From a virus, in the IMG/VR virus record IMGVR_UViG_3300008255_000099, positions 119,412 through 183,411 of that record: a stretch of 64,000 bases of DNA; one strand, written 5' to 3'. The translations under genes and the position numbers were made by a program. Positions 6,277 to 59,462 of the stretch are shown here, piece after piece. The stretch's first letter is position 1, and each line of letters opens with the position of its first letter. Under the pieces are notes generated by a model. The model saw only the letters and a list, made by a program, of their open reading frames with translations. It was not told the DNA's origin and made no database searches.

Positions 6277-6284
6277 ATTATACA
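6277..6284 (-). promoter_or_regulatory. putative -10 box (TGTATAAT) upstream of nrdJ
   Basis: TGTATAAT on minus strand about 100 nt upstream of the start; same 8-mer recurs in several intergenic gaps. Confidence 0.6.
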
Positions 6285-7103: not shown

Positions 7104-7111
7104 TGTATAAT
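7104..7111 (+). promoter_or_regulatory. putative -10 box (TGTATAAT) upstream of prkA operon
   Basis: TGTATAAT 78 nt upstream of ATG 7189 in a divergent intergenic gap. Confidence 0.6.
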
Positions 7112-30257: not shown

Positions 30258-30482
30258 CTAGCCAAAGTTGACCCCTTGCCAAGTAGCCAAAGTTGTTTTT
30301 CTCGGCTTGGCATTTGGCTTTCGTTTCTTTGACATAACTTCAAATTCTGATTCTAAATCGGCGACTGCATCTTCTGCTGCTTTATGCCGCTGCTCCGAAA
30401 AAGCACCAGTTTCATAAGTTGTTACATCGCCGTCGAATTGAAACCAAACTTCACCAGCAGGTACAGTATATTCTTTTGCCAT
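30258..30482 (-). CDS. DUF2997-like small protein
   Basis: VWFQFDGDVTTYETGAF....HKAAEDAVADLESEFEV resembles the DUF2997 pattern; adjacent to a DUF1257-like gene. Confidence 0.55.
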   Translation of the reverse strand: MAKEYTVPAGEVWFQFDGDVTTYETGAFSEQRHKAAEDAVADLESEFEVMSKKRKPNAKPRKTTLATWQGVNFG

Positions 30483-30491
30483 CGTTTTACC

Positions 30492-30818
30492 TCACATTCC
30501 TGTCCGAACAATCAACGTCTCCCGCTGGGTCGCAGGATGCTTACCCTTTCTAACCATAAAACCTTTCTTTTTAGCCCATGCTTTAACAGTTGCTCTCGAA
30601 TACGCTTCTTTAATTTGATTAACTGTGGTCTCCAATCCTATAGTGTAAGTTATACTACCAGATGAATCAATTAAAATATCACCATACGACGTTGGGACGG
30701 TAATATAATTTTCGTTGTAATTAAAATTCATTCCCATATCTTGAAGAGCTTTTTTCAATCTCTCCAAGTTCTTTATCTGGCTTGTAATTCTCATTTCCGT
30801 TGTTACGTAACAAGGCAT
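30492..30818 (-). CDS. DUF1257/Ycf35-like protein
   Basis: MPCYVTTEMRITSQIKNLERLKKALQDMG...IKEAYSRATVKAWAKKKGFMV matches the Ycf35 pattern (I.D...L..AL..LG ... Y....V......GF.V). Confidence 0.7.
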   Translation of the reverse strand: MPCYVTTEMRITSQIKNLERLKKALQDMGMNFNYNENYITVPTSYGDILIDSSGSITYTIGLETTVNQIKEAYSRATVKAWAKKKGFMVRKGKHPATQRETLIVRTGM

Positions 30819-30850
30819 AGTTTTGGACCTCCTCGGGTTTCTGTCTCTAG

Positions 30851-30858
30851 ATTATACA
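30851..30858 (-). promoter_or_regulatory. putative -10 box (TGTATAAT) for DUF1257-DUF2997 unit
   Basis: TGTATAAT on minus strand, TTGTTG 16 nt upstream, GGAGG RBS downstream. Confidence 0.6.
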
Positions 30859-30893
30859 CCCCCGCATCACCTACAACAAGGTGGAAGAAAAAA

Positions 30894-31586
30894 TTAGTTT
30901 CTAATAAAAAAAATTGCTTTTTTGATGTGATTAAAAAATATATCCTGCTTTTCAGATTGTGACAAAGCCATCATTAATTGCCCTTTTGATAAATCTTCTG
31001 TTTTTATTTTAAAAGTTCTTCCTGGCCTAATACAAAAAGAAGGATGAAAAACTGGTAAATAGCAACATTCAAAATCTATTGCTGGAATTTTCCAAGTTAT
31101 CATCTTTCCAACCATTTCGGAAATCTTCTGATCTGATCCAAAAAGATACTTCAATGGTTTAGAACCACATCCTATAATTATTTTTGGTTTTATGATATCT
31201 ATTTCTTTTCTTAAATAAAACAAACAAACATTAATAATTGCACTAATATCTTCTTTTGAAGAATCTGGGAATTTATTATTTTCTGGACGACATCTAATAA
31301 CATTAGAAATATATAATTCTTCTCCAGTTATATTTGTTTGTTTTAAAGAACTTCTGAGTAAAGCCCCAGATCTTCCCACAAATGGTTTGCCCTCTATTAC
31401 TTCTTGTGCCCCAGGCGCTTCACCAATAATCATCACTTTGGCTTTTGATGAACCAATCCCAGGGACAGGACAACCATATTCTTTTGTATTATTCTTTAAA
31501 GATAGTTGTTTATTTAACCCAGATAACTTGCATTTTTCACATTTAAGTATAGAACTTTTTATTTCATCTATTTGCGTATTATTCAT
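30894..31586 (-). CDS. udg: uracil-DNA glycosylase family 4 (Fe-S)
   Basis: CEKCKL; VMIIGEAPGAQEVIEGKPFVGRSG; SNVIRCRP; VFHPS. Confidence 0.92.
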   Translation of the reverse strand: MNNTQIDEIKSSILKCEKCKLSGLNKQLSLKNNTKEYGCPVPGIGSSKAKVMIIGEAPGAQEVIEGKPFVGRSGALLRSSLKQTNITGEELYISNVIRCRPENNKFPDSSKEDISAIINVCLFYLRKEIDIIKPKIIIGCGSKPLKYLFGSDQKISEMVGKMITWKIPAIDFECCYLPVFHPSFCIRPGRTFKIKTEDLSKGQLMMALSQSEKQDIFFNHIKKAIFFIRN

Positions 31587-32262
31587 TACTTCCTTCTATC
31601 TTTAGCAATTCTGGCAAATTGTTAAACAAATCAGTTAATTCTGATTTATTTTGTTCTTCTATATACAAATCCAACCTTTTATAAATGGAAATTATCTTAT
31701 CAATAGATTGTTTGTTTTTTATGTTCTTTCTTAAAAAATCTCCACATAATTTACTTATGATGATATTTATTGTATCCACATCCATTCCAAGGATTAAAAA
31801 TTCATCTTTTTTATTATTTTGATCTTTATAAAATTTTTGTGTTTCATATTCTAATTTCGATTGTGTTGATTCTTGTTTTAGTCCACCTATTTCTGCTAGA
31901 ATTAAGATAGATTCCTTGAAGCTATTTGTTTTAGCTATTTTTTCAACAAAATTCAGAGCATTTCCACCTTCTGATTCGGCGAAACAATACCACAATCCCT
32001 TTGAAAAATTAGCATAAAGATTTGGTGTTGATGTGTCTTGGTGAAATGGGCAAAAATATATTTTTTCTCCATTTGGCAACTCCAATTGACAGTCCATTTG
32101 ATAATAATCAAAAACTGTTTCTAGTTTAACACTTTCTATTACAATTTCTGCAAATTCTTTTGAAAAAATAACTTCATCTTTTTTATCGTCTATTTTTTCG
32201 TTAAAGTTTTGTGAGCATTTTTTTATAATAGCAGAAAATTTATTGTAAATCATCTTCGACAC
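31579..32262 (-). CDS. stand-alone primase CHC2 zinc-binding domain protein
   Basis: CPFHQDTSTPNL....GLWYCFAESEGGNALNFVEKI. Confidence 0.85.
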   Translation of the reverse strand: MSKMIYNKFSAIIKKCSQNFNEKIDDKKDEVIFSKEFAEIVIESVKLETVFDYYQMDCQLELPNGEKIYFCPFHQDTSTPNLYANFSKGLWYCFAESEGGNALNFVEKIAKTNSFKESILILAEIGGLKQESTQSKLEYETQKFYKDQNNKKDEFLILGMDVDTINIIISKLCGDFLRKNIKNKQSIDKIISIYKRLDLYIEEQNKSELTDLFNNLPELLKIEGSNE

Positions 32263-33784
32263 CTACATCTACTGGAAGAACAACTTCTTCCAGTTCTTTT
32301 TCAATTTTTGTTGTCATTTCATTATAAACAGATGCCATTTCCGAGGTATCTCGTTTTCCTCCGAATGCAGTTACTGCTTTTTGATTTTTTTCAATTGGAA
32401 CAATCTTACAGATTTCAGGATCATATGCTAAAAAGAAATTTTCAAAGAAGAAATCTCTAGCTTTAATGCAGTGTAGCCACATCAACAAATGTGGTGAAGG
32501 TTCTGAAACTTCCTGTGGAGACAGGCCAACAACAATATCAGCATAATCCATTGTCTTTTTGGAATCAGCAATCATTTCACCATACCACTTAAAATTCTCT
32601 ATGTCATTGCTTTCTTGTTTCTTTCTACTAGCTTTTAATCCTTCTCTATTTATCTGCTGTGCTGTAACCATCGGGATTTCATAGACTCTTGCCATTCTTC
32701 TCAATTCTCTTGTGGCTTTTGCTATTTTTTCATAATCTTTACCATCCTGCACACCACTCTCTTGAACCATATTCCCAAGATAATCAACGAATATAACATC
32801 TGGCTTATTTCCAGAAGAAATTAAGTTTTTAATATGAAATTCTATCTCTTCTGAACTACAATTATCTGGCTGATCAATAAAATAAAAATAAGAATCACTT
32901 TCTTTTTCTTGTCTATCAAGAAATCTTTTCCAGATTTTATCTTGATTTTCATTTAGACTAAAATTCTTAAAGTTAGCATATGGAACCCCCGTATTTAACG
33001 AATAATATCTAGCCATACACTGCCACAAAGGCATTTCGAATGAAAAGAATAAAACATTCTTGTTTTCTTTGTGTGCATTTGATGCACAATTCAACAAAAC
33101 CGTTGACTTACCTTTCCCTGCTTCTCCTAAAAACACAACTAATTGTCCAGATTTAATTCCACCAGATGCTTCATCAAGTTCTGGGATACCAAATTTTATA
33201 GTCCCTAATCTTTTAATCCTTTTTTCTTCTGCTTCCCAAAATTCAATAGCAGAATCTTTATCTGCCCCAACATCTAAAATCTTTGTCGGGATACCCTCCA
33301 CAAAATGTGATGATTCTATTTCATACCAAAAATCTTTAGATTTTTTCGTTGCCTCATATGCATCTAAATTTGTAAACCAATCTTTCATTTTAGAGGGAAA
33401 TTCAAAAGATTTTCTTTTCAAAGATCTCATCTTTAATTCTTCAATTAAATATTCAAAATTACTATTTTTTGTGTTCTGGGACATAACCTTGGCAAAAGAA
33501 GTATTTAAACCAATTAATCTTTCTTGATCTAATTGTCTTTTGTTTAATTCGTTCTGAAATGCTTCTTGGGTTATGCTGGAATTGAATTTATAATAGAATT
33601 CAACAATAATTTTATAAATCCCAGAATAAAATGGGAATCTTGATTCTTCTGGAATAAAACAAAAATGTTTATAATTAAGCGCTTTATTAACAGCTTGTCT
33701 AAGATTGTTCTCGTCTTCAAGAACAAAAGAAAGTATTTTTATTTCTAATTCTTCTTGTGGAATTACATCTTCTGATATGTTCAT
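32240..33784 (-). CDS. dnaB: replicative DnaB-like helicase
   Basis: GQLVVFLGEAGKGKS; FFSFEM; VIFVDYLG; PMVTAQQINR; IADSKKTMDYAD. Confidence 0.93.
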   Translation of the reverse strand: MNISEDVIPQEELEIKILSFVLEDENNLRQAVNKALNYKHFCFIPEESRFPFYSGIYKIIVEFYYKFNSSITQEAFQNELNKRQLDQERLIGLNTSFAKVMSQNTKNSNFEYLIEELKMRSLKRKSFEFPSKMKDWFTNLDAYEATKKSKDFWYEIESSHFVEGIPTKILDVGADKDSAIEFWEAEEKRIKRLGTIKFGIPELDEASGGIKSGQLVVFLGEAGKGKSTVLLNCASNAHKENKNVLFFSFEMPLWQCMARYYSLNTGVPYANFKNFSLNENQDKIWKRFLDRQEKESDSYFYFIDQPDNCSSEEIEFHIKNLISSGNKPDVIFVDYLGNMVQESGVQDGKDYEKIAKATRELRRMARVYEIPMVTAQQINREGLKASRKKQESNDIENFKWYGEMIADSKKTMDYADIVVGLSPQEVSEPSPHLLMWLHCIKARDFFFENFFLAYDPEICKIVPIEKNQKAVTAFGGKRDTSEMASVYNEMTTKIEKELEEVVLPVDVGVEDDLQ

Positions 33785-33796
33785 TTTATCTCCTAA

Positions 33797-34540
33797 CTAA
33801 TATGTCTTTGGCTCAAAGGTTGTATCACCTTGGGGTAAATATATAAAAATAGATTCCTGAATAAACCTTTGAGTAACAGGCCCGAACATATTTATTAATT
33901 CTGAATAGCTATTGGTCGTTGTAAAAATAGTTACTTTTCCATGAGTGCTCCTATATTCCATCATTGCTTCAAATTTTCTCTTAAAAGCATTTGTAGGATC
34001 ATAGTTTTTGTTATTAATTCCATCAATAGTAACAATCTGTTTGTTTTTAAACAAACTCTCTATTTCTTGTGTTTCTGAAATACTATTTGGATCTAGATGG
34101 TATTTCATAAAACCATCTAGGATGTAATACCAAGAAAAGAAAAAGGAACTATTTAAATTTATTGACGCAGCTTCTTTTGTCACAGCAGAAGCAAGTAGCG
34201 TTTTACCGGAAGATTTACCACCACAAAATATGATATTAAAGACATTGATGTTATCGTTATTACTATTTTTTATTGTAATAATTTCACCATTTAAAATTTT
34301 GTTTAAGTTGTCTATGTATTGAATAACAAAATCTTTTGCTTTTGTCTTCATGTTCCTATCTACTATGCTTAATTCATTACCATAAGCATCTTGTCGAATA
34401 TTAAAATCTTCTATTGTATATCCCCAATATTCATGTGGTATATTGATTGTTTTATATTTTGATTCAATATAATGATCATAAATTTCATCATTAAAAATTG
34501 CTTCTCCATTCTCATTAATTACAAATGGTTTTTTGTCCAT
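33797..34540 (-). CDS. DnaC/IstB-like helicase loader ATPase
   Basis: NIPHEYWGYTIEDF; IIFCGGKSSGKTLLA; MEYRSTHGKVTIFTTTN; directly upstream of dnaB. Confidence 0.8.
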   Translation of the reverse strand: MDKKPFVINENGEAIFNDEIYDHYIESKYKTINIPHEYWGYTIEDFNIRQDAYGNELSIVDRNMKTKAKDFVIQYIDNLNKILNGEIITIKNSNNDNINVFNIIFCGGKSSGKTLLASAVTKEAASINLNSSFFFSWYYILDGFMKYHLDPNSISETQEIESLFKNKQIVTIDGINNKNYDPTNAFKRKFEAMMEYRSTHGKVTIFTTTNSYSELINMFGPVTQRFIQESIFIYLPQGDTTFEPKTY

Positions 34541-34562
34541 AATTTTATACTCCTATCAGAAT

Positions 34563-34617
34563 CAACAAGGCCATCCGTTGCTCCAATTATACACGAGAGC
34601 AACGGGTGGCCTTGTTG
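34563..34617 (-). promoter_or_regulatory. 21-bp inverted repeat enclosing a TGTATAAT -10 box
   Basis: CAACAAGGCCATCCGTTGCTC / GAGCAACGGGTGGCCTTGTTG (one wobble) around a 13-nt loop containing ATTATACA. Confidence 0.75.
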
Positions 34618-34632
34618 GAAAAATAAATTAGA

Positions 34633-36375
34633 TTATTGAGTCATCAACCCATCAACAATTTCTTCTTCCCCGCTTTTTTCTGGCGCATCATTGAAGTCAA
34701 GATCGTCCCCAATACTACGACCTTTGTCTTCGTCCTCGTCGTCTCTTCTCGTCTCGTTAGAGCCAGAAGTAGCGTATCTGGCTCTTTTCTTTGCCCACTC
34801 ACGCAGAGTTTCAATGTCTTCTTTCATGGTTTTAGACAAAGGAATTGTTGCATTCAAAGCTACCATGATATCATCTGTGTTAAATTCTCTTTCTTCCGAA
34901 AATGCTTTAAACATACCTTCGATAATCGCCTGTTCAATTTCAGCCCCGGTATGCCCCAGGGAAGATTCTGCAAGAGCAGCAATATCATAGACTTTTGGAT
35001 CCCTTTTTCGCTTTTGAATATGGATATCAAAAATAGACATTCTCTCTTCTTTGTTCGGCAAATCAACGAAGAAGATTTCGTCGAATCTACCTTTTCTCAA
35101 TAATTCCGGCGGCAGGCCAGAGATGTTGTTTGCCGTAGCAACAACAAAGACTGGTTGAGTCTTTTCGTTCATCCACGTCAAAAACGACCCGAAGACACGA
35201 GCGGCCGTGCCGGCGTCGGAGCGATCTGACGATTTTGTGCCCGCCATGCCTTTTTCAATTTCATCAATCCACAAAACACATGGGGCAACAGCTTCAACAA
35301 TTCGCTGCACCTCACGCATATTTGCTTCTGATTGACCAACAATCCCACCGAAAACACGCCCAACATCAAACCGCAGCAACGGCATTTGATAGAGAGCGCT
35401 GGCGGCTTTTGCCGTCAAGCTCTTACCACAACCCTGAATCCCCACGAGAAGGACCCCCTTGGGGTTGGGCAACCCATATTCCCTTGCCCGATCAGAGAAG
35501 GCTTGTTTTCTTAACGTCAACCAATCCTTCATTTCGTCCAAGCCGCCAATTTGTTCGACGCCACCTTCCATTTTAACAAATTCGACCAACCCAGATTTCC
35601 TAATTTGCTCTTCTTTAGCTGCAATAATCTTTTCAACTGACAAGCGATTATTGCGGACTATTTGATAGGCCAACACTGCTTTAAATTCACATTCTGTAAG
35701 TCCCAAAGATCCATTAAGAATTGTTTCTTTTTCAACAGGATCAATTTCATCTTGGATATCTTTATTCTCAAGCTTACCTTGTTTCTTACGATTTTTTACA
35801 GATTCTAACAAATTATCAATAATATTCGACAACAAATTTTTATCTGGCAACGGGAAATCAATAATTTGTACAACTTTATTCAGATCCGTCGGAATCTTTT
35901 GATCTGAAGAAACAATAAATAAGCATTTTCTTTGCAAAGAATTCGCAAAGTTTTTGATTCTCCTGATAATTGCGATAGCGCCAGGATCTTCATAGTTCCC
36001 CTGACCGCTTGAACCCCAAAACTTGTGGAAATCGTTCATAACGAAAATTCCACCTTCTTGCTCCTGGGAATATTGAATTGAATCTATAAACTCAATGGCA
36101 GAAATCGGATCGACATAATCAGAAGGGTCTGTAATTTTGTTTGAGGATTTCGGATATTCTTGGTACAATCCATTAGCACAATCCCAAAAAAACAACTCTG
36201 TTTTTCTTGATCTTGCAATTTCAATCATTGCCTCTTTCACACGAGATTCTTCCCAAGAAATAATCATTGAAACTGGACGCCGAGCCTTAACAGTTGAAAC
36301 AATACATTGATATGCTTCCAACTCCTGTTCGGATTTGAGCCCATCAAACAGTTCTTGTTCGGTCTTTTCGGACAT
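34633..36375 (-). CDS. ycf46: Ycf46-like AAA+ ATPase (degenerate N-terminal AAA plus active C-terminal AAA)
   Basis: N-domain ISWEESRV..FFWD..IFVMNDFHKF; QIGGLDEMKDWL; PKGVLLVGIQGCGKSLTAK; LWIDEIEKG; TANNISGLPPELLRKGRFDEIFFVDLP; ATG 36375 preferred (GAGGTGG RBS) over GTG 36387. Confidence 0.9.
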   Translation of the reverse strand: MSEKTEQELFDGLKSEQELEAYQCIVSTVKARRPVSMIISWEESRVKEAMIEIARSRKTELFFWDCANGLYQEYPKSSNKITDPSDYVDPISAIEFIDSIQYSQEQEGGIFVMNDFHKFWGSSGQGNYEDPGAIAIIRRIKNFANSLQRKCLFIVSSDQKIPTDLNKVVQIIDFPLPDKNLLSNIIDNLLESVKNRKKQGKLENKDIQDEIDPVEKETILNGSLGLTECEFKAVLAYQIVRNNRLSVEKIIAAKEEQIRKSGLVEFVKMEGGVEQIGGLDEMKDWLTLRKQAFSDRAREYGLPNPKGVLLVGIQGCGKSLTAKAASALYQMPLLRFDVGRVFGGIVGQSEANMREVQRIVEAVAPCVLWIDEIEKGMAGTKSSDRSDAGTAARVFGSFLTWMNEKTQPVFVVATANNISGLPPELLRKGRFDEIFFVDLPNKEERMSIFDIHIQKRKRDPKVYDIAALAESSLGHTGAEIEQAIIEGMFKAFSEEREFNTDDIMVALNATIPLSKTMKEDIETLREWAKKRARYATSGSNETRRDDEDEDKGRSIGDDLDFNDAPEKSGEEEIVDGLMTQ

Positions 36376-36459
36376 CTTGTTTGCCACCTCTTACTTGGGA
36401 TACCGCCGGGGGCCGGTTCGCCGGCACCACCTCTATATAGTACACCAAAGCCAAACACC

Positions 36460-37320
36460 TCAACCAGTGGAACATTTTTGTTTATTTTTTATGATTTGAT
36501 TATAGTGCTCTGGTGCAGTTCCAGAATAATCATTATTTCTCCACCAAGATTCATGCTTCGATTCGCAAGAGGTTATAATCTGATCAAAAATTTCTCTCCA
36601 ATATAGAATCAGAAAATCATCTGGATAAGGACTCATATTAATGCTCTTTTTTATAATTTTGTTAACATCAATTATTTTTCCAGCTTTAACAAGGCCATTC
36701 ATTCGATTAAAAACTAAACTTATAATTTCTTCTTCTGTTTTATTAGCAAAATTAAATAAATAAGTCGCAGAGATTGGGATCCCATAATTTGACAAAAAAT
36801 CCACAAGCGTCATATTCTCTGAGATTAATTTAGCCTTTAAATTATTTAAGAATTCAGCGTCGTTTATTTCTAGAACAGAATTATCTACGGAACTTGAATT
36901 TTCTGAAAGGAAGATGTTGATGTATTTCTTTAAATCAGGGATTAAAAATGTCAATGATGTTTTTAATACCATTTCTTTATTTTTAACACACCAATCAATT
37001 AAATCTTTTAGGACAACCTTTGAATTATGACCAGATTTTGAAATTGAAGATCTTAATTCTTTTATTGTTATTTTATCAGCACCCCAATTTTTAATAATAT
37101 ACTCATTACCAAAAATTTTCTTAAAAGCTTGACCAAAATAGATAATAAAATCTTTATCATTCCATTCCTCTAATGGTTTGATACTGTTTTTATTTTGTGC
37201 TATTTTCCATTTAGAAATTTTTTCATTATTCTTATTCTTTTCATTTGAATCTAATGAGATAGCTCTAATTAGAGATTCTATTTCATTATTTTCTGTCTTT
37301 TTGTTAGTCATTTGTTTCAT
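36460..37320 (-). CDS. hypothetical protein
   Basis: 286 aa ORF coupled to the sbcC C-terminal gene. Confidence 0.75.
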   Translation of the reverse strand: MKQMTNKKTENNEIESLIRAISLDSNEKNKNNEKISKWKIAQNKNSIKPLEEWNDKDFIIYFGQAFKKIFGNEYIIKNWGADKITIKELRSSISKSGHNSKVVLKDLIDWCVKNKEMVLKTSLTFLIPDLKKYINIFLSENSSSVDNSVLEINDAEFLNNLKAKLISENMTLVDFLSNYGIPISATYLFNFANKTEEEIISLVFNRMNGLVKAGKIIDVNKIIKKSINMSPYPDDFLILYWREIFDQIITSCESKHESWWRNNDYSGTAPEHYNQIIKNKQKCSTG

Positions 37321-38014
37321 TTACAATCTCCGTCATAGTTTGATCCAGTTCCTCAATGGTTGTTTTATCATTTCTTATTTTAAGCTGAAAAACCTTGTCA
37401 ACATTATTTATTAATTCATCAGAATGTGTGGTAAATATCAATTGTCTACCATCACCTTCTGCCCCTTTTCCGTCAGGGTTTAAAGTCGCTCGCAAGACAT
37501 CGGAACACCCTGGTAAACGATTTTTATCTAGATGTTTAAAAGTCTCGTCGGCCATCAACGGACCTTCTATTCTTGGGGATGTTATTTCAATCATGGAAAT
37601 TGCCAAGCACATAGATACTACATCAATCAAACCACCTCCTCGGTGTTCAAGTTTTGTTGTCGAATCTATCCCTGGCAAATCAACAAACATAGGATTTGTG
37701 ACCCTTATCTCTGCGTGTGATGAATTTCTTTTTTCAGAATAATCTATTCTAACTTCATAACCTTCACCAAAAGTACTTTTGAGCCCAATTGTCCCTATTT
37801 CTTCAACAATAGTTTTTGAACGAAGCTTTCCTTGCTCAAGGTATTCAAAACATAAATTTCTTGCCTTCTCCGTTAATTTTCTTTTGGTAAGTGTTTTTTC
37901 GAATTCTATTTTTTCCTTTTCTATTTGCTTTTGGATGTTGTTTCTTTTTTCTTGTTTAATAATCAACTCTTGAAGTTGGTTGGTTACCTTTTTTTCTAAA
38001 TCATCAATTGTCAT
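37304..38014 (-). CDS. sbcC: SbcC/Rad50 ATPase, C-terminal half
   Basis: Coiled coil, then signature RGGGLIDVVS, Walker B LMADETFKHLD, H-loop LIFTTH. Confidence 0.87.
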   Translation of the reverse strand: MTIDDLEKKVTNQLQELIIKQEKRNNIQKQIEKEKIEFEKTLTKRKLTEKARNLCFEYLEQGKLRSKTIVEEIGTIGLKSTFGEGYEVRIDYSEKRNSSHAEIRVTNPMFVDLPGIDSTTKLEHRGGGLIDVVSMCLAISMIEITSPRIEGPLMADETFKHLDKNRLPGCSDVLRATLNPDGKGAEGDGRQLIFTTHSDELINNVDKVFQLKIRNDKTTIEELDQTMTEIVNETND

Positions 38015-38260: not shown

Positions 38261-39223
38261 TTATTCTGATGAAATTATTGACTGAAGTTCATCAATAACA
38301 ATTGCTATTTCTTCCTCAGAAGCATCCATCTCTTTTGCAAATTTTATAAAATCTTGACATGGATCATCTGATTTTTCTTGAACATTTCTAACTCGTAGTT
38401 CAGCTATCTTCTCTCTTAAAGATTTTGCATCTAATCTTCGTTCTTTATTTACTTGAACTTTATTTAAATCAAAAATATCCTCTGAATTTTTTGCTGATTG
38501 TAATGGTTTGTACTCAATAGATATTTGATCTTTATCAACATCAACAACAGCAATTTGAATTTGTCTCTCAATATTAGCTTGAATTGCACTTATTCTGCAA
38601 AGACTACCAGGATTTGCAAAAACCACATCATCTTCTCTAATAATTGGTGAATTTCCCGGATGATAATGCCCACTTATCACAAGTTTTGTGTTTTCATGTG
38701 TTTGAAAATCATTAATTAAAACATAATTGCCTTCAAAAAATGGATTTTCCAAAATATTTGCGTGCATAGCATAAATCAGAGCATCATTAGAAGACCAGTC
38801 TTGTTCTTCTATTTTGTTAATGTAATGTCCACAAAAAATAGAATATTTCTCTATGAAAGTTTCACATTTTACAATTCCAGAATCAATCAAAGTGCCCAAT
38901 GCTGTCCTATAAATAGTGTCTGGGTTTTGTCCTGAAATATCATGATTCCCTACTACGACATATTTATCAAAAGACCAAGGGTTTCCGTCGGGTTTTTTAT
39001 TAAATAGATTCAGGACCTCATTCCGAACAGAGCCAGAGGGTTCCTCTCTATCAAAGATATCACCAAGAAAAATAACACCATCACATTTAATCTCCTCTGC
39101 CATCAAAAGAGACTCAATGACTAATGATTTTAATTCTTGTCGATAATCATCTTTTCTATTTATTGGGTTTTCCCATCTCCAATGGATATCACCAATAAAC
39201 ATAATCTTATATTTTTCTAGCAT
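38261..39223 (-). CDS. sbcD: SbcD/Mre11 metallophosphoesterase nuclease
   Basis: FIGDIHW; FLGDIFD; VVGNHD; AMH; SGHYH; NPGSL. Confidence 0.92.
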   Translation of the reverse strand: MLEKYKIMFIGDIHWRWENPINRKDDYRQELKSLVIESLLMAEEIKCDGVIFLGDIFDREEPSGSVRNEVLNLFNKKPDGNPWSFDKYVVVGNHDISGQNPDTIYRTALGTLIDSGIVKCETFIEKYSIFCGHYINKIEEQDWSSNDALIYAMHANILENPFFEGNYVLINDFQTHENTKLVISGHYHPGNSPIIREDDVVFANPGSLCRISAIQANIERQIQIAVVDVDKDQISIEYKPLQSAKNSEDIFDLNKVQVNKERRLDAKSLREKIAELRVRNVQEKSDDPCQDFIKFAKEMDASEEEIAIVIDELQSIISSE

Positions 39224-42072: not shown

Positions 42073-42151
42073 TTTTCTCCATTCTATTTTTTGTTCTATT
42101 ATACATCTAACAAAGCAGGAAATTATCTAAGTTGTTGTTAATTAATAAAAA

Positions 42152-56206: not shown

Positions 56207-56214
56207 TGTATAAT
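56207..56214 (+). promoter_or_regulatory. putative -10 box (TGTATAAT) of the Ubl operon
   Basis: TGTATAAT flanked by CCGG/CCGG, 55 nt upstream of ATG 56269. Confidence 0.65.
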
Positions 56215-56268: not shown

Positions 56269-56499
56269 ATGAGTGAAACGATTTCGATTCGACTGATTTG
56301 CAACAATGAGGCTGGGTATGCCGACAATGTGACGGTCCCCGCCGGAACCTCAATCGGGGAACTTTTCCGTGAAAAGATGCCCGAGCACAACCCCGCCGAT
56401 TACGTGATCCGGGTGAACGCCGAGCCGGTTCAGCGAGCGCAGATCCTCTGCAACGGCGACCGTGTTACGATCAGCCCGCAGAAAGTCGCTGGGGCTTAA
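56269..56499 (+). CDS. ubiquitin-like (beta-grasp, ThiS/MoaD-like) protein, 76 aa
   Basis: MSETISIRLICNNEAGYADNVTVPAGTSIGELF...DYVIRVNAEPV..QILCNGDRVTISPQKVAGA; AAGGGAG RBS; C-terminal GA. Confidence 0.85.
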   Translation: MSETISIRLICNNEAGYADNVTVPAGTSIGELFREKMPEHNPADYVIRVNAEPVQRAQILCNGDRVTISPQKVAGA

Positions 56500-56504
56500 G
56501 ACAA

Positions 56505-56547
56505 AAGATCCGAGACTAGGGAATCAAATTCCCTAGTCTCGGATCTT
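56505..56547 (+). terminator. 20-bp perfect hairpin after Ubl (attenuator, stabiliser or processing site)
   Basis: AAGATCCGAGACTAGGGAAT-CAA-ATTCCCTAGTCTCGGATCTT; no clear U-tract. Confidence 0.7.
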
Positions 56548-56579
56548 ATGCTCTAAATTCTAGTTCGAATGAGGGCAAT

Positions 56580-57806
56580 ATGTCTCAAGAAACACTGAGG
56601 GAATTGTTTAAGTTTGCCAAACAAATAGAAACTCAATTTGTGCCCTCAAGAGGACGAATGCTACGATCAAATCTAGAAAATAATAATTTAAAGAATCAAA
56701 TTTCTAAACTTATTTTTATTCTCAATAGATTAGAAAATTGCTCTGAAAATAACATGGATCGTTCAATCAATGCTATGTTTGAATATGTCAGAAAAAATAA
56801 AATTATCGAAGATGTTCAACAAGGAGTTAATTTCTTAGCTTCTGTGAGAAACACGAGAGAAACATCTGATGATATTAGTAATCTTTCTCTAATCACAAAA
56901 GATTTGTATTATCTTAAGAGAGATTTTAATTGTGTTCGACTCTCTTTTCAGCCACTTTCGATTACCATCAGAACCGATCCCATTTTCTTGACTCATGCAA
57001 GTGTTAATCTTGGGAATCCAGTTGAGATTGGTGAGATTGACATTCAATTGTTTTTGACGGGGATCGAAGAATTTAGAATTAGAGCAAAGCCAGTTAGAGA
57101 TTCAACGAAGTTTTCATCCGAAAGATCTGGATCTGATAGATATTTCCATCCTCATATAAATATTGATGGTAGCATTTGTCTAGGAAACAATGGAGAAACA
57201 ATTAATTCAGCCATAAGACAATGTAGATTTTTAGATACATTCGAATTACTTTCCTTTTTGCTTAAAAACTATAACTCAGGAAGCCCATATCGTGTCCTGA
57301 ATTCATGGGTTATGCCAGAATGTCAATCCTGCGGAGACTCAACAAGATTAAAATGCTTTTTCACACATCAATATGTCTGTGAATCTTGTGCTATGATTGT
57401 CCTTTCTGAAAATGGTTGGCCCCAATTTGCGACACCTACATATTGGCAGCAACAACCCGCTTGCAAATGCTGTGGCCATAAATTGCAATTTGGTAGTTTA
57501 TGTCCCAGATGTGTAGAACTAAATATATATCTAATAAAAATAGCTGAAATTGAACAAGCACAAGAACGTGAAAAAGCAAAAATTGCTTCTTTTAAAATCT
57601 TATTCGAAAAATCAGAAGCAGACTTTGAACCAATTTCTGAAAGAATTTCTTCGCTTCATTTTGATCAAATTGAAGCAATCAATAGATCAAATCTGACATA
57701 TTTTAATTCAACCTACTCATATGAAGAAGCAAAAGAGATTGCAAAAAATAGCTTCAGATTTTCCTTCCCCGTAATGATAGAGCCTGAATTGGTAGGACAA
57801 ACCTAA
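56580..57806 (+). CDS. prokaryotic E2/UBC-like conjugating enzyme fused to a Cys-rich zinc-finger region
   Basis: FHPHINIDGSICLG (Cys200) E2 signature followed by YNSGSPY; then CQSC, CESC, CKCC, CPRC; helical N-terminus. Confidence 0.82.
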   Translation: MSQETLRELFKFAKQIETQFVPSRGRMLRSNLENNNLKNQISKLIFILNRLENCSENNMDRSINAMFEYVRKNKIIEDVQQGVNFLASVRNTRETSDDISNLSLITKDLYYLKRDFNCVRLSFQPLSITIRTDPIFLTHASVNLGNPVEIGEIDIQLFLTGIEEFRIRAKPVRDSTKFSSERSGSDRYFHPHINIDGSICLGNNGETINSAIRQCRFLDTFELLSFLLKNYNSGSPYRVLNSWVMPECQSCGDSTRLKCFFTHQYVCESCAMIVLSENGWPQFATPTYWQQQPACKCCGHKLQFGSLCPRCVELNIYLIKIAEIEQAQEREKAKIASFKILFEKSEADFEPISERISSLHFDQIEAINRSNLTYFNSTYSYEEAKEIAKNSFRFSFPVMIEPELVGQT

Positions 57807-57844
57807 AAATAGGTTGTTTCAAAACCATGACAACTGGAGAAAAG

Positions 57845-58918
57845 ATGATGCCAGACTCAGACAAAGAAGAGTTGTTCGGTGCCGACGGGGTTCAAAAAAC
57901 CACAACCTATACAGCCGGCAATTTTAATTCTAGTGTGAATTCACATAGAGTATTTTTCAAAGGAATTGGGTGGCTTACTGTCTATTCTAAAAGCAATAAA
58001 AACAAAACAACTGTTAATTTGAACCCGACAACAACGACAACAAAGAAATCAGAACCATTAAAAATCGTGCGAAAAAACTTAATGTTTTCTGGGTCTGCAA
58101 TGGCTAAGTTGTTGTGGTGTCGTGATAAAGGCGGCACAGAAATAGCCGGCTTCGGCATCTCGTCAAAAGAAGATCCGCTTTACATCAAAGAATTTTGCCT
58201 AGTTAAACAAGACGCCTCCGTTGCCTACGTTGAAATGGACGACGACGGCCTTGTAGAATTTATTGAAAAAATGGACGACAGAGGATTAGACCCCTGTGAA
58301 TACCTGAGAATTTGGATTCACACTCACCCCGGATCTAGCCCGTCGCCATCTGGAAAAGACGAAGAAACATTTAGAACAGAATTTTCTAACTGCAACTGGT
58401 CAGTTATGGCAATCCTTGCCAGAGGCAACCAGTTCTATGCTAGAATCAAAATGAACGAAATTAATTTCGCCGTAGATATCGAACATGAAGTTAATTGGTC
58501 TGATATGAAAAGTGAACTTCTGGATGTCACAGCTTGGGAAACAGAATTTGAAGAATGCGTTAAAACTACAAGTTATTCACATTCATATTATCAAGGAATG
58601 GGCGTGGGAAATAATAATGGTTGGGAAGACTATGATGGATTTGAAACCATGGTTTCAAATCCATCATATTCATATCGCCACTCAAACGTGAATCAGGGAC
58701 AAGGACAAACGAATGTCAGCAGAAACCAAGCCGACTATGGATATGGAAGTGCCCAACGATCCAGTGTTATTATCAGCCCGAACCAGCAGGTACAAGGAAA
58801 TAATACCGCTGGATTCGTTGACGACAATGAACCTAATGATCGTGGGAACGGGGGCAATTGGGAGACAGGTGGCGCTGCTGATGGCAGCTATGGGCCTGCC
58901 CCAAATGGTGCTGATTGA
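57845..58918 (+). CDS. JAB/MPN+ (JAMM) metalloisopeptidase
   Basis: TEIAGFG; IWIHTHPGSSPSPSGKDEETF fits HxH-x7-S-x2-D; ATG 57845 has a GGAGA RBS (alternative start 57827). Confidence 0.9.
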   Translation: MMPDSDKEELFGADGVQKTTTYTAGNFNSSVNSHRVFFKGIGWLTVYSKSNKNKTTVNLNPTTTTTKKSEPLKIVRKNLMFSGSAMAKLLWCRDKGGTEIAGFGISSKEDPLYIKEFCLVKQDASVAYVEMDDDGLVEFIEKMDDRGLDPCEYLRIWIHTHPGSSPSPSGKDEETFRTEFSNCNWSVMAILARGNQFYARIKMNEINFAVDIEHEVNWSDMKSELLDVTAWETEFEECVKTTSYSHSYYQGMGVGNNNGWEDYDGFETMVSNPSYSYRHSNVNQGQGQTNVSRNQADYGYGSAQRSSVIISPNQQVQGNNTAGFVDDNEPNDRGNGGNWETGGAADGSYGPAPNGAD

Positions 58919-59462
58919 TTTCGATAAGGTCGAAGCTGAAAACCTTGGCCCACAAGGTTTTCGGCCCGACCAAATCGGCCAATTCAAAACAGAATGCTTG
59001 CTGGAAGATTGCCAGAGAATCAACCCGGAAGCGAATTTTACCGCTGTCACAGATAAATTCCGGGCGAAATTTCTTCTGGATTTTAAACCAACAGCAATCA
59101 TTTCATGTGTCGATTCAATGAGAATTAGAGCAATGATTTGGGAAAATATCAGAATGTTGGATTGTTTGTTTATTGATACCAGAATGTCATCAGAAACTTG
59201 TGAAATTTATTCGTCAGAAGCTCCGCATAGTGGTTACTATGAAACCACCCTTTTTGAAGACGCAGAAGCATACCAAGGATCCTGCACAGCGAAAAGCACA
59301 ATCTATTGTGCCAATATCGCAGCCGGTCTGGCCGTTTCTCTGCTCTCCAAAGCAATGAGGGGCATCTCACTTGAACCAAAACTTTCATTGAACATTCTTG
59401 GCTCTGAATTAGAAGCAATTTTCATGGAACCAGAAACACAAGAAGAACGACCAGAAGAATAA
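58713..59462 (+). CDS. ThiF/MoeB/E1-like adenylyltransferase
   Basis: IVGTGAIGRQ; LIDFDKVEAENLGPQ; KTEC; ISCVDS; IDTRM; GSCTAKSTIYCANIAAG. Confidence 0.92.
   Translation: MSAETKPTMDMEVPNDPVLLSARTSRYKEIIPLDSLTTMNLMIVGTGAIGRQVALLMAAMGLPQMVLIDFDKVEAENLGPQGFRPDQIGQFKTECLLEDCQRINPEANFTAVTDKFRAKFLLDFKPTAIISCVDSMRIRAMIWENIRMLDCLFIDTRMSSETCEIYSSEAPHSGYYETTLFEDAEAYQGSCTAKSTIYCANIAAGLAVSLLSKAMRGISLEPKLSLNILGSELEAIFMEPETQEERPEE

Follow-up and report, generated by a model that had tools for sequence, protein, structure and literature searches.

A phage tandem-AAA ATPase module with DUF1257 and DUF2997 partners is recurrently linked to a Bil-like ubiquitin-like operon

Bil-type bacterial ubiquitin-like systems tag phage proteins. 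In actinobacteria, a dedicated AAA unfoldase (Mpa/ARC) reads the small protein tag Pup, which makes it a bacterial precedent for tagging followed by unfolding; Pup does not belong to the beta-grasp proteins, and PafA ligates it in place of an E1 and an E2. A third gene set, combining an AAA ATPase with DUF1257 and DUF2997 proteins, is widespread and includes relatives of plastid ycf35 and possibly of ycf46; we know of no function described for it. Here we analyze a phage region that brings such genes together, namely the terminal 64,000 nucleotides (bases 119412-183411; hereafter the window) of the 183,411-base viral record IMGVR_UViG_3300008255_000099, whose CheckV completeness is 58%. The window encodes a tandem-AAA ATPase, a divergent DUF1257 protein followed by an open reading frame (ORF) of 74 amino acids (aa), and an operon for a ubiquitin-like protein (Ubl), an E2 candidate, a JAB peptidase and a ThiF/E1 protein (E1). 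A first-pass annotation of the sequence had proposed that the ATPase and its two small partners are the segregase arm of the Ubl system, acting on tagged proteins as Cdc48 and its adaptors do. We find a real genomic coupling, recurring in other genomes, between the ATPase module and Ubl operons of this type, and it is this genomic association that supports the proposal in part.

The Ubl operon has the same parts in the same order (Ubl, E2 candidate, JAB, E1) as BilABCD, the bacterial ISG15-like antiphage system (10.1101/2023.09.04.556158, 10.1101/2023.09.26.559546), and sits on a phage instead. As had been noted from the sequence, Ubl, JAB and E1 lie in the same genome as the ATPase. The E1 match is clear and the JAB match weak (E = 1.8e-4 and 3e-5 in two library scans); the Ubl and the E2 candidate match no family model searched and are conserved across the E1 loci. 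The longest E1 frame shares ~200 bases with the end of the JAB frame (window 58713-58918), and the true E1 start probably lies further downstream. Neither of the two Bil papers mentions an AAA ATPase or Cdc48, and the same holds for an AAA or Cdc48-like partner in a later study of bacterial Ubl structures and in a 2006 survey of prokaryotic ubiquitin-like systems. Our literature search found no link of the segregase kind between Ycf46 and ubiquitin, no description of an ATPase module adjacent to a Ubl operon, and no downstream reader or unfoldase for bacterial Ubl systems.

To assess the extent of the linkage, we used an alignment of the E1 type, which retrieved 54 viral loci, and searched 47 records for the phrog_8638 ATPase, counting it as present when phrog_8638 matched over its full length with E < 1e-80. 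Of these 47 viral records, each with a relative of the window E1, 20 carry the ATPase. We took as control 28 viral records that have a UDG gene and a minimum length of 40 kb, no terminase having been found for a lineage-matched control, and the ATPase occurs in one of them. The difference is large (odds ratio 20, Fisher p = 1.6e-4), in a comparison that is weakened by a control unmatched for host or lineage and by the many fragments among the records. Among records at least 90% complete, the ATPase is present in 9 of 22 with the E1 and in none of 12 controls (Fisher p = 0.013). The ATPase and the Ubl operon therefore co-occur beyond chance. The collection of cultured phages is uninformative on this association because the E1 type is nearly absent there: it was found in five crAss-like records, none of which is among the ATPase matches listed.

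The linkage is also one of position. According to match coordinates, the E1 and the ATPase share a strand and are separated by 2-9 kb in ~17 of the 20 linked records, and the E1 is upstream of the ATPase in all but one of these close pairs. Linkage is kept in at least two different viral architectures. In one, the E1 is followed by three fixed genes, the AAA gene, a RecA-like gene, DUF2997, a radical SAM gene and DUF1257; in the other, changing small ORFs separate the E1 from the AAA gene, which is followed by a DUF3150-like gene, DUF1257 and DUF2997. The window phage keeps both modules, yet it has almost no other genes in common with the linked phages.

The same coupling extends to cellular sequences. 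The window E1 type has 454 relatives in cellular contigs, nearly all of them metagenome-assembled genomes (MAGs) of Planctomycetota (loci L214-L292). Members of the trio occur within 10 kb of the E1 in 16 of the best 79 cellular loci (63 of the 79 are without the ATPase) and near the E1 in 8 of the 32 loci with long flanks on both sides. Several Planctomycetota loci form a single array, Ubl-E2-JAB-E1-DUF1257-DUF2997-AAA, in which 11-36 bp separate the E1 match from the DUF1257 match; in one locus (L262) the called ORFs overlap. In the ATPase tree, E1-linked copies fall into at least four strongly supported clades. In the E1 tree, ATPase-positive records stand at five or more places among ATPase-negative small phages, which implies a minimum of five state changes. 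Because the linked copies are scattered over separate clades, a single inherited arrangement cannot explain the linkage.

Three further observations concern these loci. The E1 type is often multi-copy within a Planctomycetota genome, a hint of a mobile element and perhaps of phage host range. The three Planctomycetota loci that were checked have a G+C content of 58-65%, against ~30% for the window. Finally, a locus filed as the chromosome of a Heimdallarchaeota MAG (L241, CP070695.1, 10001-15949) has DUF1257 and a DUF3150-like gene together with an E1 and an ATPase. Its ATPase nests inside a phage clade, and the locus resembles viral or integrated DNA more than the core genome of an archaeon.

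The identification of the window ATPase as an AAA protein of the classical, Cdc48-type clade held up well. The Pfam AAA domain covers residues 312-442 (E = 7e-28), and the phage AAA ATPase family phrog_8638 matches over its full length (E = 1.3e-151; residues 20-546 on positions 16-545 of 568). Among curated families and solved structures, the ATPase is closest to CDC48, PAN and FtsH, the best match being the D2 domain of p97/Cdc48/VAT (E ~1e-47). The D2 motifs comprise Walker A (GIQGCGKS), Walker B (LWIDEIE), the sensor asparagine and the arginine fingers in LLRKGRFD, and the columns of Walker A, Walker B and the arginine fingers are invariant across 37 relatives. Pore loop 1 reads GIVGQSE, at a position where the family alternates between aliphatic G[IL]VG and aromatic K[YF]VG. 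No PDB entry matches residues 1-282 in sequence, and reading that stretch revealed no Walker motifs.

An AlphaFold model built on the 37 relatives (predicted local distance difference test score, pLDDT, 88.4; predicted template modelling score 0.83) shows an N-terminal alpha/beta domain with a helical lid before the second AAA domain. With Foldseek and VIA-align, residues 2-532 of the model superpose on residues 197-763 of p97 (D1+D2) and on Rix7, NVL, AFG2 and Pex1/6, with 460-483 aligned residues (470-483 for p97 D1+D2) and Z ~25. Because residues 2-532 lie on the D1+D2 of p97 and on the other proteins, the earlier description as a double AAA is right as a statement about fold; it does not extend to the sequence of D1, which has neither Walker motifs nor a sequence match. 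The degenerate D1 spans approximately residues 30-260 and the model begins directly with it, so that there is no N domain of the p97 type (double-psi barrel). At the other end, an acidic tail (residues 540-580) is predicted to be disordered. As modelled, the ATPase is a tandem AAA protein whose first domain has lost the nucleotide motifs and whose second is an intact p97/Cdc48 D2-like domain. More than 8000 full-length relatives are found in many phyla, named simply "AAA family ATPase" or carrying the COG label SpoVK/Ycf46/Vps4. Support for the term Ycf46 comes solely from this COG-style name that source databases give to the relatives. The name alone links the phage ATPase to cyanobacterial and plastid ycf46; the small proteins of the phage relatives of the trio belong to the same Pfam families as ycf35 and DUF2997 of cyanobacteria and plastids.

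The recurrent AAA/DUF1257/DUF2997 trio, which the first-pass annotation took as established, is real in phages. We surveyed 39 records with an ATPase relative (36 viral contigs and three cultured phages). Pfam DUF2997 was found in 20 of them and DUF1257 in 11, nearly always within a few kb downstream of the ATPase; for instance, the trio of Rhizobium phage L338C consists of genes 050, 052 and 053. Additional partners vary and include a RecA-like protein with an NrdG-like radical-SAM protein, or a protein of ~300 aa with a Cys-rich protein of 83 aa.

The DUF1257 assignment in the window also stood, for a divergent member that scores below the Pfam cut-off. With Pfam DUF1257 (PF06868), the ORF scores 15 bits (E = 0.03) against a gathering cut-off of 22.2, with residues 59-98 in register with model positions 59-98; in the genome-wide scan it scores 13 bits and is still at the top of the 183-kb record. 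Two hidden Markov models (HMMs) gave clearer separation among the 837 ORFs. The first, built from DUF1257 genes adjoining ATPase relatives in other phages, ranks this ORF at the top with E = 8e-4 (next best 0.31), and so does the second, specific to an "MPCYVT" subgroup, with E = 8e-5 (next best 0.48). An ESM Atlas model of the ORF matches DUF1257 clusters with template modelling scores of 0.75-0.78 over ~102 residues. A homologue search with the protein returned the query itself only. From the three profiles and the predicted fold, we classify it as a divergent DUF1257.

The subgroup to which this ORF belongs has the invariant N-terminus MPCY(V/L)(T/S), and canonical DUF1257 members start with MSHxT. 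Five other phage loci contain MPCY members (L025:12794-13102, L031:12846-13097, L027:6421-6690, L032:13113-13385 and L033:11336-11620). A protein of 71-75 aa ending in ...VIYTG is encoded directly 3' of the DUF1257 gene in four of the five, and a protein of 81-120 aa with a CxC...CKHL (SWIM-like) motif just upstream in all five.

The assignment of the 74-aa ORF to DUF2997 could not be confirmed. No Pfam DUF2997 (PF11211) match was found anywhere in the record even at E <= 10. The ORF gave no signal with two custom DUF2997 HMMs, an hhalign probability <5%, no match in the Pfam, PHROG, NCBIfam and PADLOC libraries, and no relatives among 5.8 billion proteins. It is also without the G-x-G-x-x-C core conserved in DUF2997 members. 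Its structural models are of low confidence (ESM Atlas pLDDT 0.34; single-sequence AlphaFold 58.6), and the best hit of a BFVD fold search (E = 0.12) was not meaningful. The fit to DUF2997 is limited to the place right after DUF1257, the size, and a beta-hairpin and helix that the model of pLDDT 58.6 predicts weakly; the ORF also has a basic tail.

Table 1. Features of the window discussed in the text (window positions; TGTATAAT is a promoter-like octamer).
Feature	Position	Strand	Remark
Tandem-AAA ATPase	34633-36375	-	580 aa from ATG; alternative in-frame GTG at 36387
Divergent DUF1257 (Ycf35-like), 108 aa	30492-30818	-	profiles and fold match
74-aa orphan ORF at the usual DUF2997 place (after DUF1257)	30258-30482	-	position, size
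Ubl (76 aa, ends ...KVAGA), 408-aa E2 candidate, JAB peptidase, ThiF/E1	56269-59462	+	Bil-like operon
DnaC-like ATPase / helicase-loader-like	33797-34540	-	weak family match
DnaB helicase	32240-33784	-	clear family match
Primase zinc-ribbon protein	31579-32262	-	clear family match
UDG-family protein	30894-31586	-	clear family match
phrog_15167 ATPase	37304-38014	-	upstream of the tandem-AAA ATPase
SbcD-like metallophosphoesterase	38261-39223	-	upstream of the tandem-AAA ATPase
TGTATAAT, extended -10 promoter-like motif	30851-30858	-	within the 75 bp that precede the DUF1257-like gene
TGTATAAT motif	34586-34593	-	after the ATPase stop codon, before the helicase-loader-like gene
TGTATAAT motif	56207-56214	+	precedes the Ubl operon
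TGTATAAT motif, further copy	6277-6284	-	
TGTATAAT motif, further copy	7104-7111	+	
TGTATAAT motif, further copy	42098-42105	-	

Most long ORFs between ~16 and 47 kb of the window lie on the minus strand, and blastn found nothing matching the region among cultured phages. As first described, the ATPase and the small pair are interleaved with replication genes (Table 1), for which the DnaB, primase zinc-ribbon and UDG calls are clear and the DnaC-like call is weak. These genes, which are not part of the module, separate the DUF1257-like ORF from the ATPase by 3.8 kb. As in the window, the ATPase is followed by a further gene (there of 268-290 aa), DnaB and primase in two more viral lineages, of which one is a 488-kb phage (L013:10004-14649 and L023:9932-14661). 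On the upstream side, the phrog_15167 ATPase and the SbcD-like gene probably share a transcription unit with the tandem-AAA ATPase; the fetched loci contain no relatives of either.

The window contains 14 copies of the octamer TGTATAAT where 3.4 would be expected, a four-fold enrichment, and the copies that were checked fall in intergenic gaps. Because it is enriched and, where checked, intergenic, it is likely to be the main extended -10 promoter class of the phage. The DUF1257-like gene has a strong ribosome-binding site (GAGGAGG) downstream of its copy, and the statement that the small pair is separately promoted is plausible. The copy downstream of the ATPase stop codon would start a separate replication transcription unit, and there is no copy directly before the ATPase. 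With a copy before the small pair and another before the replication genes and none before the ATPase, the three groups probably form three transcription units.

How could the two modules work together? We propose that the phage ATPase may be a hexamer-type classical AAA unfoldase, p97-like and devoid of an N domain, in which a nucleotide-blind D1 ring would be stacked with an active D2. The divergent DUF1257 protein, and probably also the 74-aa protein, would act as its cofactors, and the window genes would be a scattered copy of the conserved AAA/DUF1257/DUF2997 module. Ubl-tagged proteins, which might come from the host, from a rival phage or from the phage that encodes the system, may then be recognized through the small cofactors and unfolded or extracted by the ATPase, by analogy with Cdc48 and Ufd1-Npl4 and with Mpa and Pup. 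The phage ATPase resembles Cdc48/p97/VAT in its tandem AAA fold, with a D2 nearest to that of p97, and in its genomic tie to a ubiquitin-like conjugation set and to small partner proteins. It differs in having no double-psi-barrel N domain, no Walker motifs in D1 and an aliphatic pore loop (GIVG); the DUF1257 and DUF2997 partners have no known likeness to Ufd1, Npl4 or UBX proteins, and the coiled-coil and OB domains of Mpa are absent. Given the genomic linkage, functional coupling of some kind between the ATPase module and the Ubl operon has slightly less than an even chance. The full reading, in which phages and mobile elements of Planctomycetota carry a complete tag-and-extract pathway (a Bil-like cascade, DUF1257/DUF2997 adaptors and a p97-like unfoldase), has in our estimate a probability of about 0.25.

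Several observations weigh against functional coupling. A ThiF gene is found in 6 of the 39 ATPase-bearing records and is missing from the other 33, and 27 of the 47 E1 records are without the ATPase. Neither module needs the other, because each is frequent without its partner. In the window itself, the two are 20 kb apart on opposite strands. TGTATAAT is too common, standing before many unrelated genes, to argue for their co-regulation. The window ATPase groups, with weak support, with contigs that show no E1, though these are 11-33% complete, and its immediate neighbours have no relatives in any fetched locus. The DUF2997 partner is unconfirmed in the window, and none of the variable partners of the trio was detected in the 183-kb record: profiles for the DUF3150-like and SWIM-like proteins, derived from relatives of the locus, had no hits, and a radical-SAM search gave one sub-threshold match ~87 kb upstream of the window. 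In cyanobacteria, the duf2997-ycf35 pair sits with the ferredoxin gene fed7 and not with a Ubl system (PMC4284462), and our literature search found DUF1257 and DUF2997 only in this cyanobacterial duf2997-ycf35-fed7 cluster and as unexplained markers.

The alternative that best survives is that the trio is a self-contained protein-remodelling module with its own client, found near Ubl operons only as shared accessory cargo. Elsewhere the companions of the trio are a radical-SAM activase, a DUF3150-like protein or an Hsp70, and both modules would be carried by shared mobile elements and in shared variable regions of phage genomes. Such independence would account for the 33 trio records without an E1 and the more than 8000 ATPase relatives in many phyla, as well as for the E1 loci without the ATPase (27 of 47 viral records and 63 of 79 cellular loci). 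It would also fit the changing small ORFs that fill the space between E1 and ATPase in one phage group and the distance between the modules in the window. It is less easily reconciled with E1 and DUF1257 genes that overlap or lie 11-36 bp apart in Planctomycetota operons, with the twenty-fold enrichment over the control, and with the recurrence of the E1-upstream-of-ATPase order in separate clades of both trees. On balance, we regard independent cargo as a possible explanation and not a probable one.

A second alternative concerns the window alone. The two small ORFs might be unrelated to the ATPase, the first being a decaying DUF1257 relic and the second an unrelated orphan. Their distance of 3.8 kb from the ATPase, the different promoter, the sub-threshold Pfam score of the first and the absence of any match for the second would all be expected in that case. 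Against this, the order of AAA, DUF1257 and small gene on one strand is that of other loci, and the putative relic keeps the invariant MPCY start of its subgroup, an intact predicted fold, a strong ribosome-binding site and a promoter-like site, so that we consider decay improbable. Least likely is that the window ATPase works with the replication genes downstream, for example by remodelling or loading a helicase-primase complex: it is a minor rival because the order ATPase, helicase-loader-like gene, DnaB, primase recurs in the two other lineages, and against it stand the TGTATAAT motif that sets the replication genes apart as their own unit, the rarity of adjacent replication genes at the ATPase in ~55 other loci, as judged from the order and size of the genes, and the identity of the conserved ATPase neighbours, which are DUF1257 and DUF2997 and not replisome parts.

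Taken alone, the window is a modest gain, as its copy of the module is scattered and its DUF2997 partner unconfirmed. The recurrent coupling, in turn, gives both modules a concrete hypothesis, that the ATPase acts on Ubl-tagged proteins. A phage might use such a pathway for excluding rival phages, for controlling its own assembly or for attacking host proteins. If the tag-and-extract reading is true, the pathway would stand beside ubiquitin-Cdc48 as an independent or ancestral counterpart, and it would provide a first biochemical role for the orphan ycf46 and ycf35 families of plastids and cyanobacteria.

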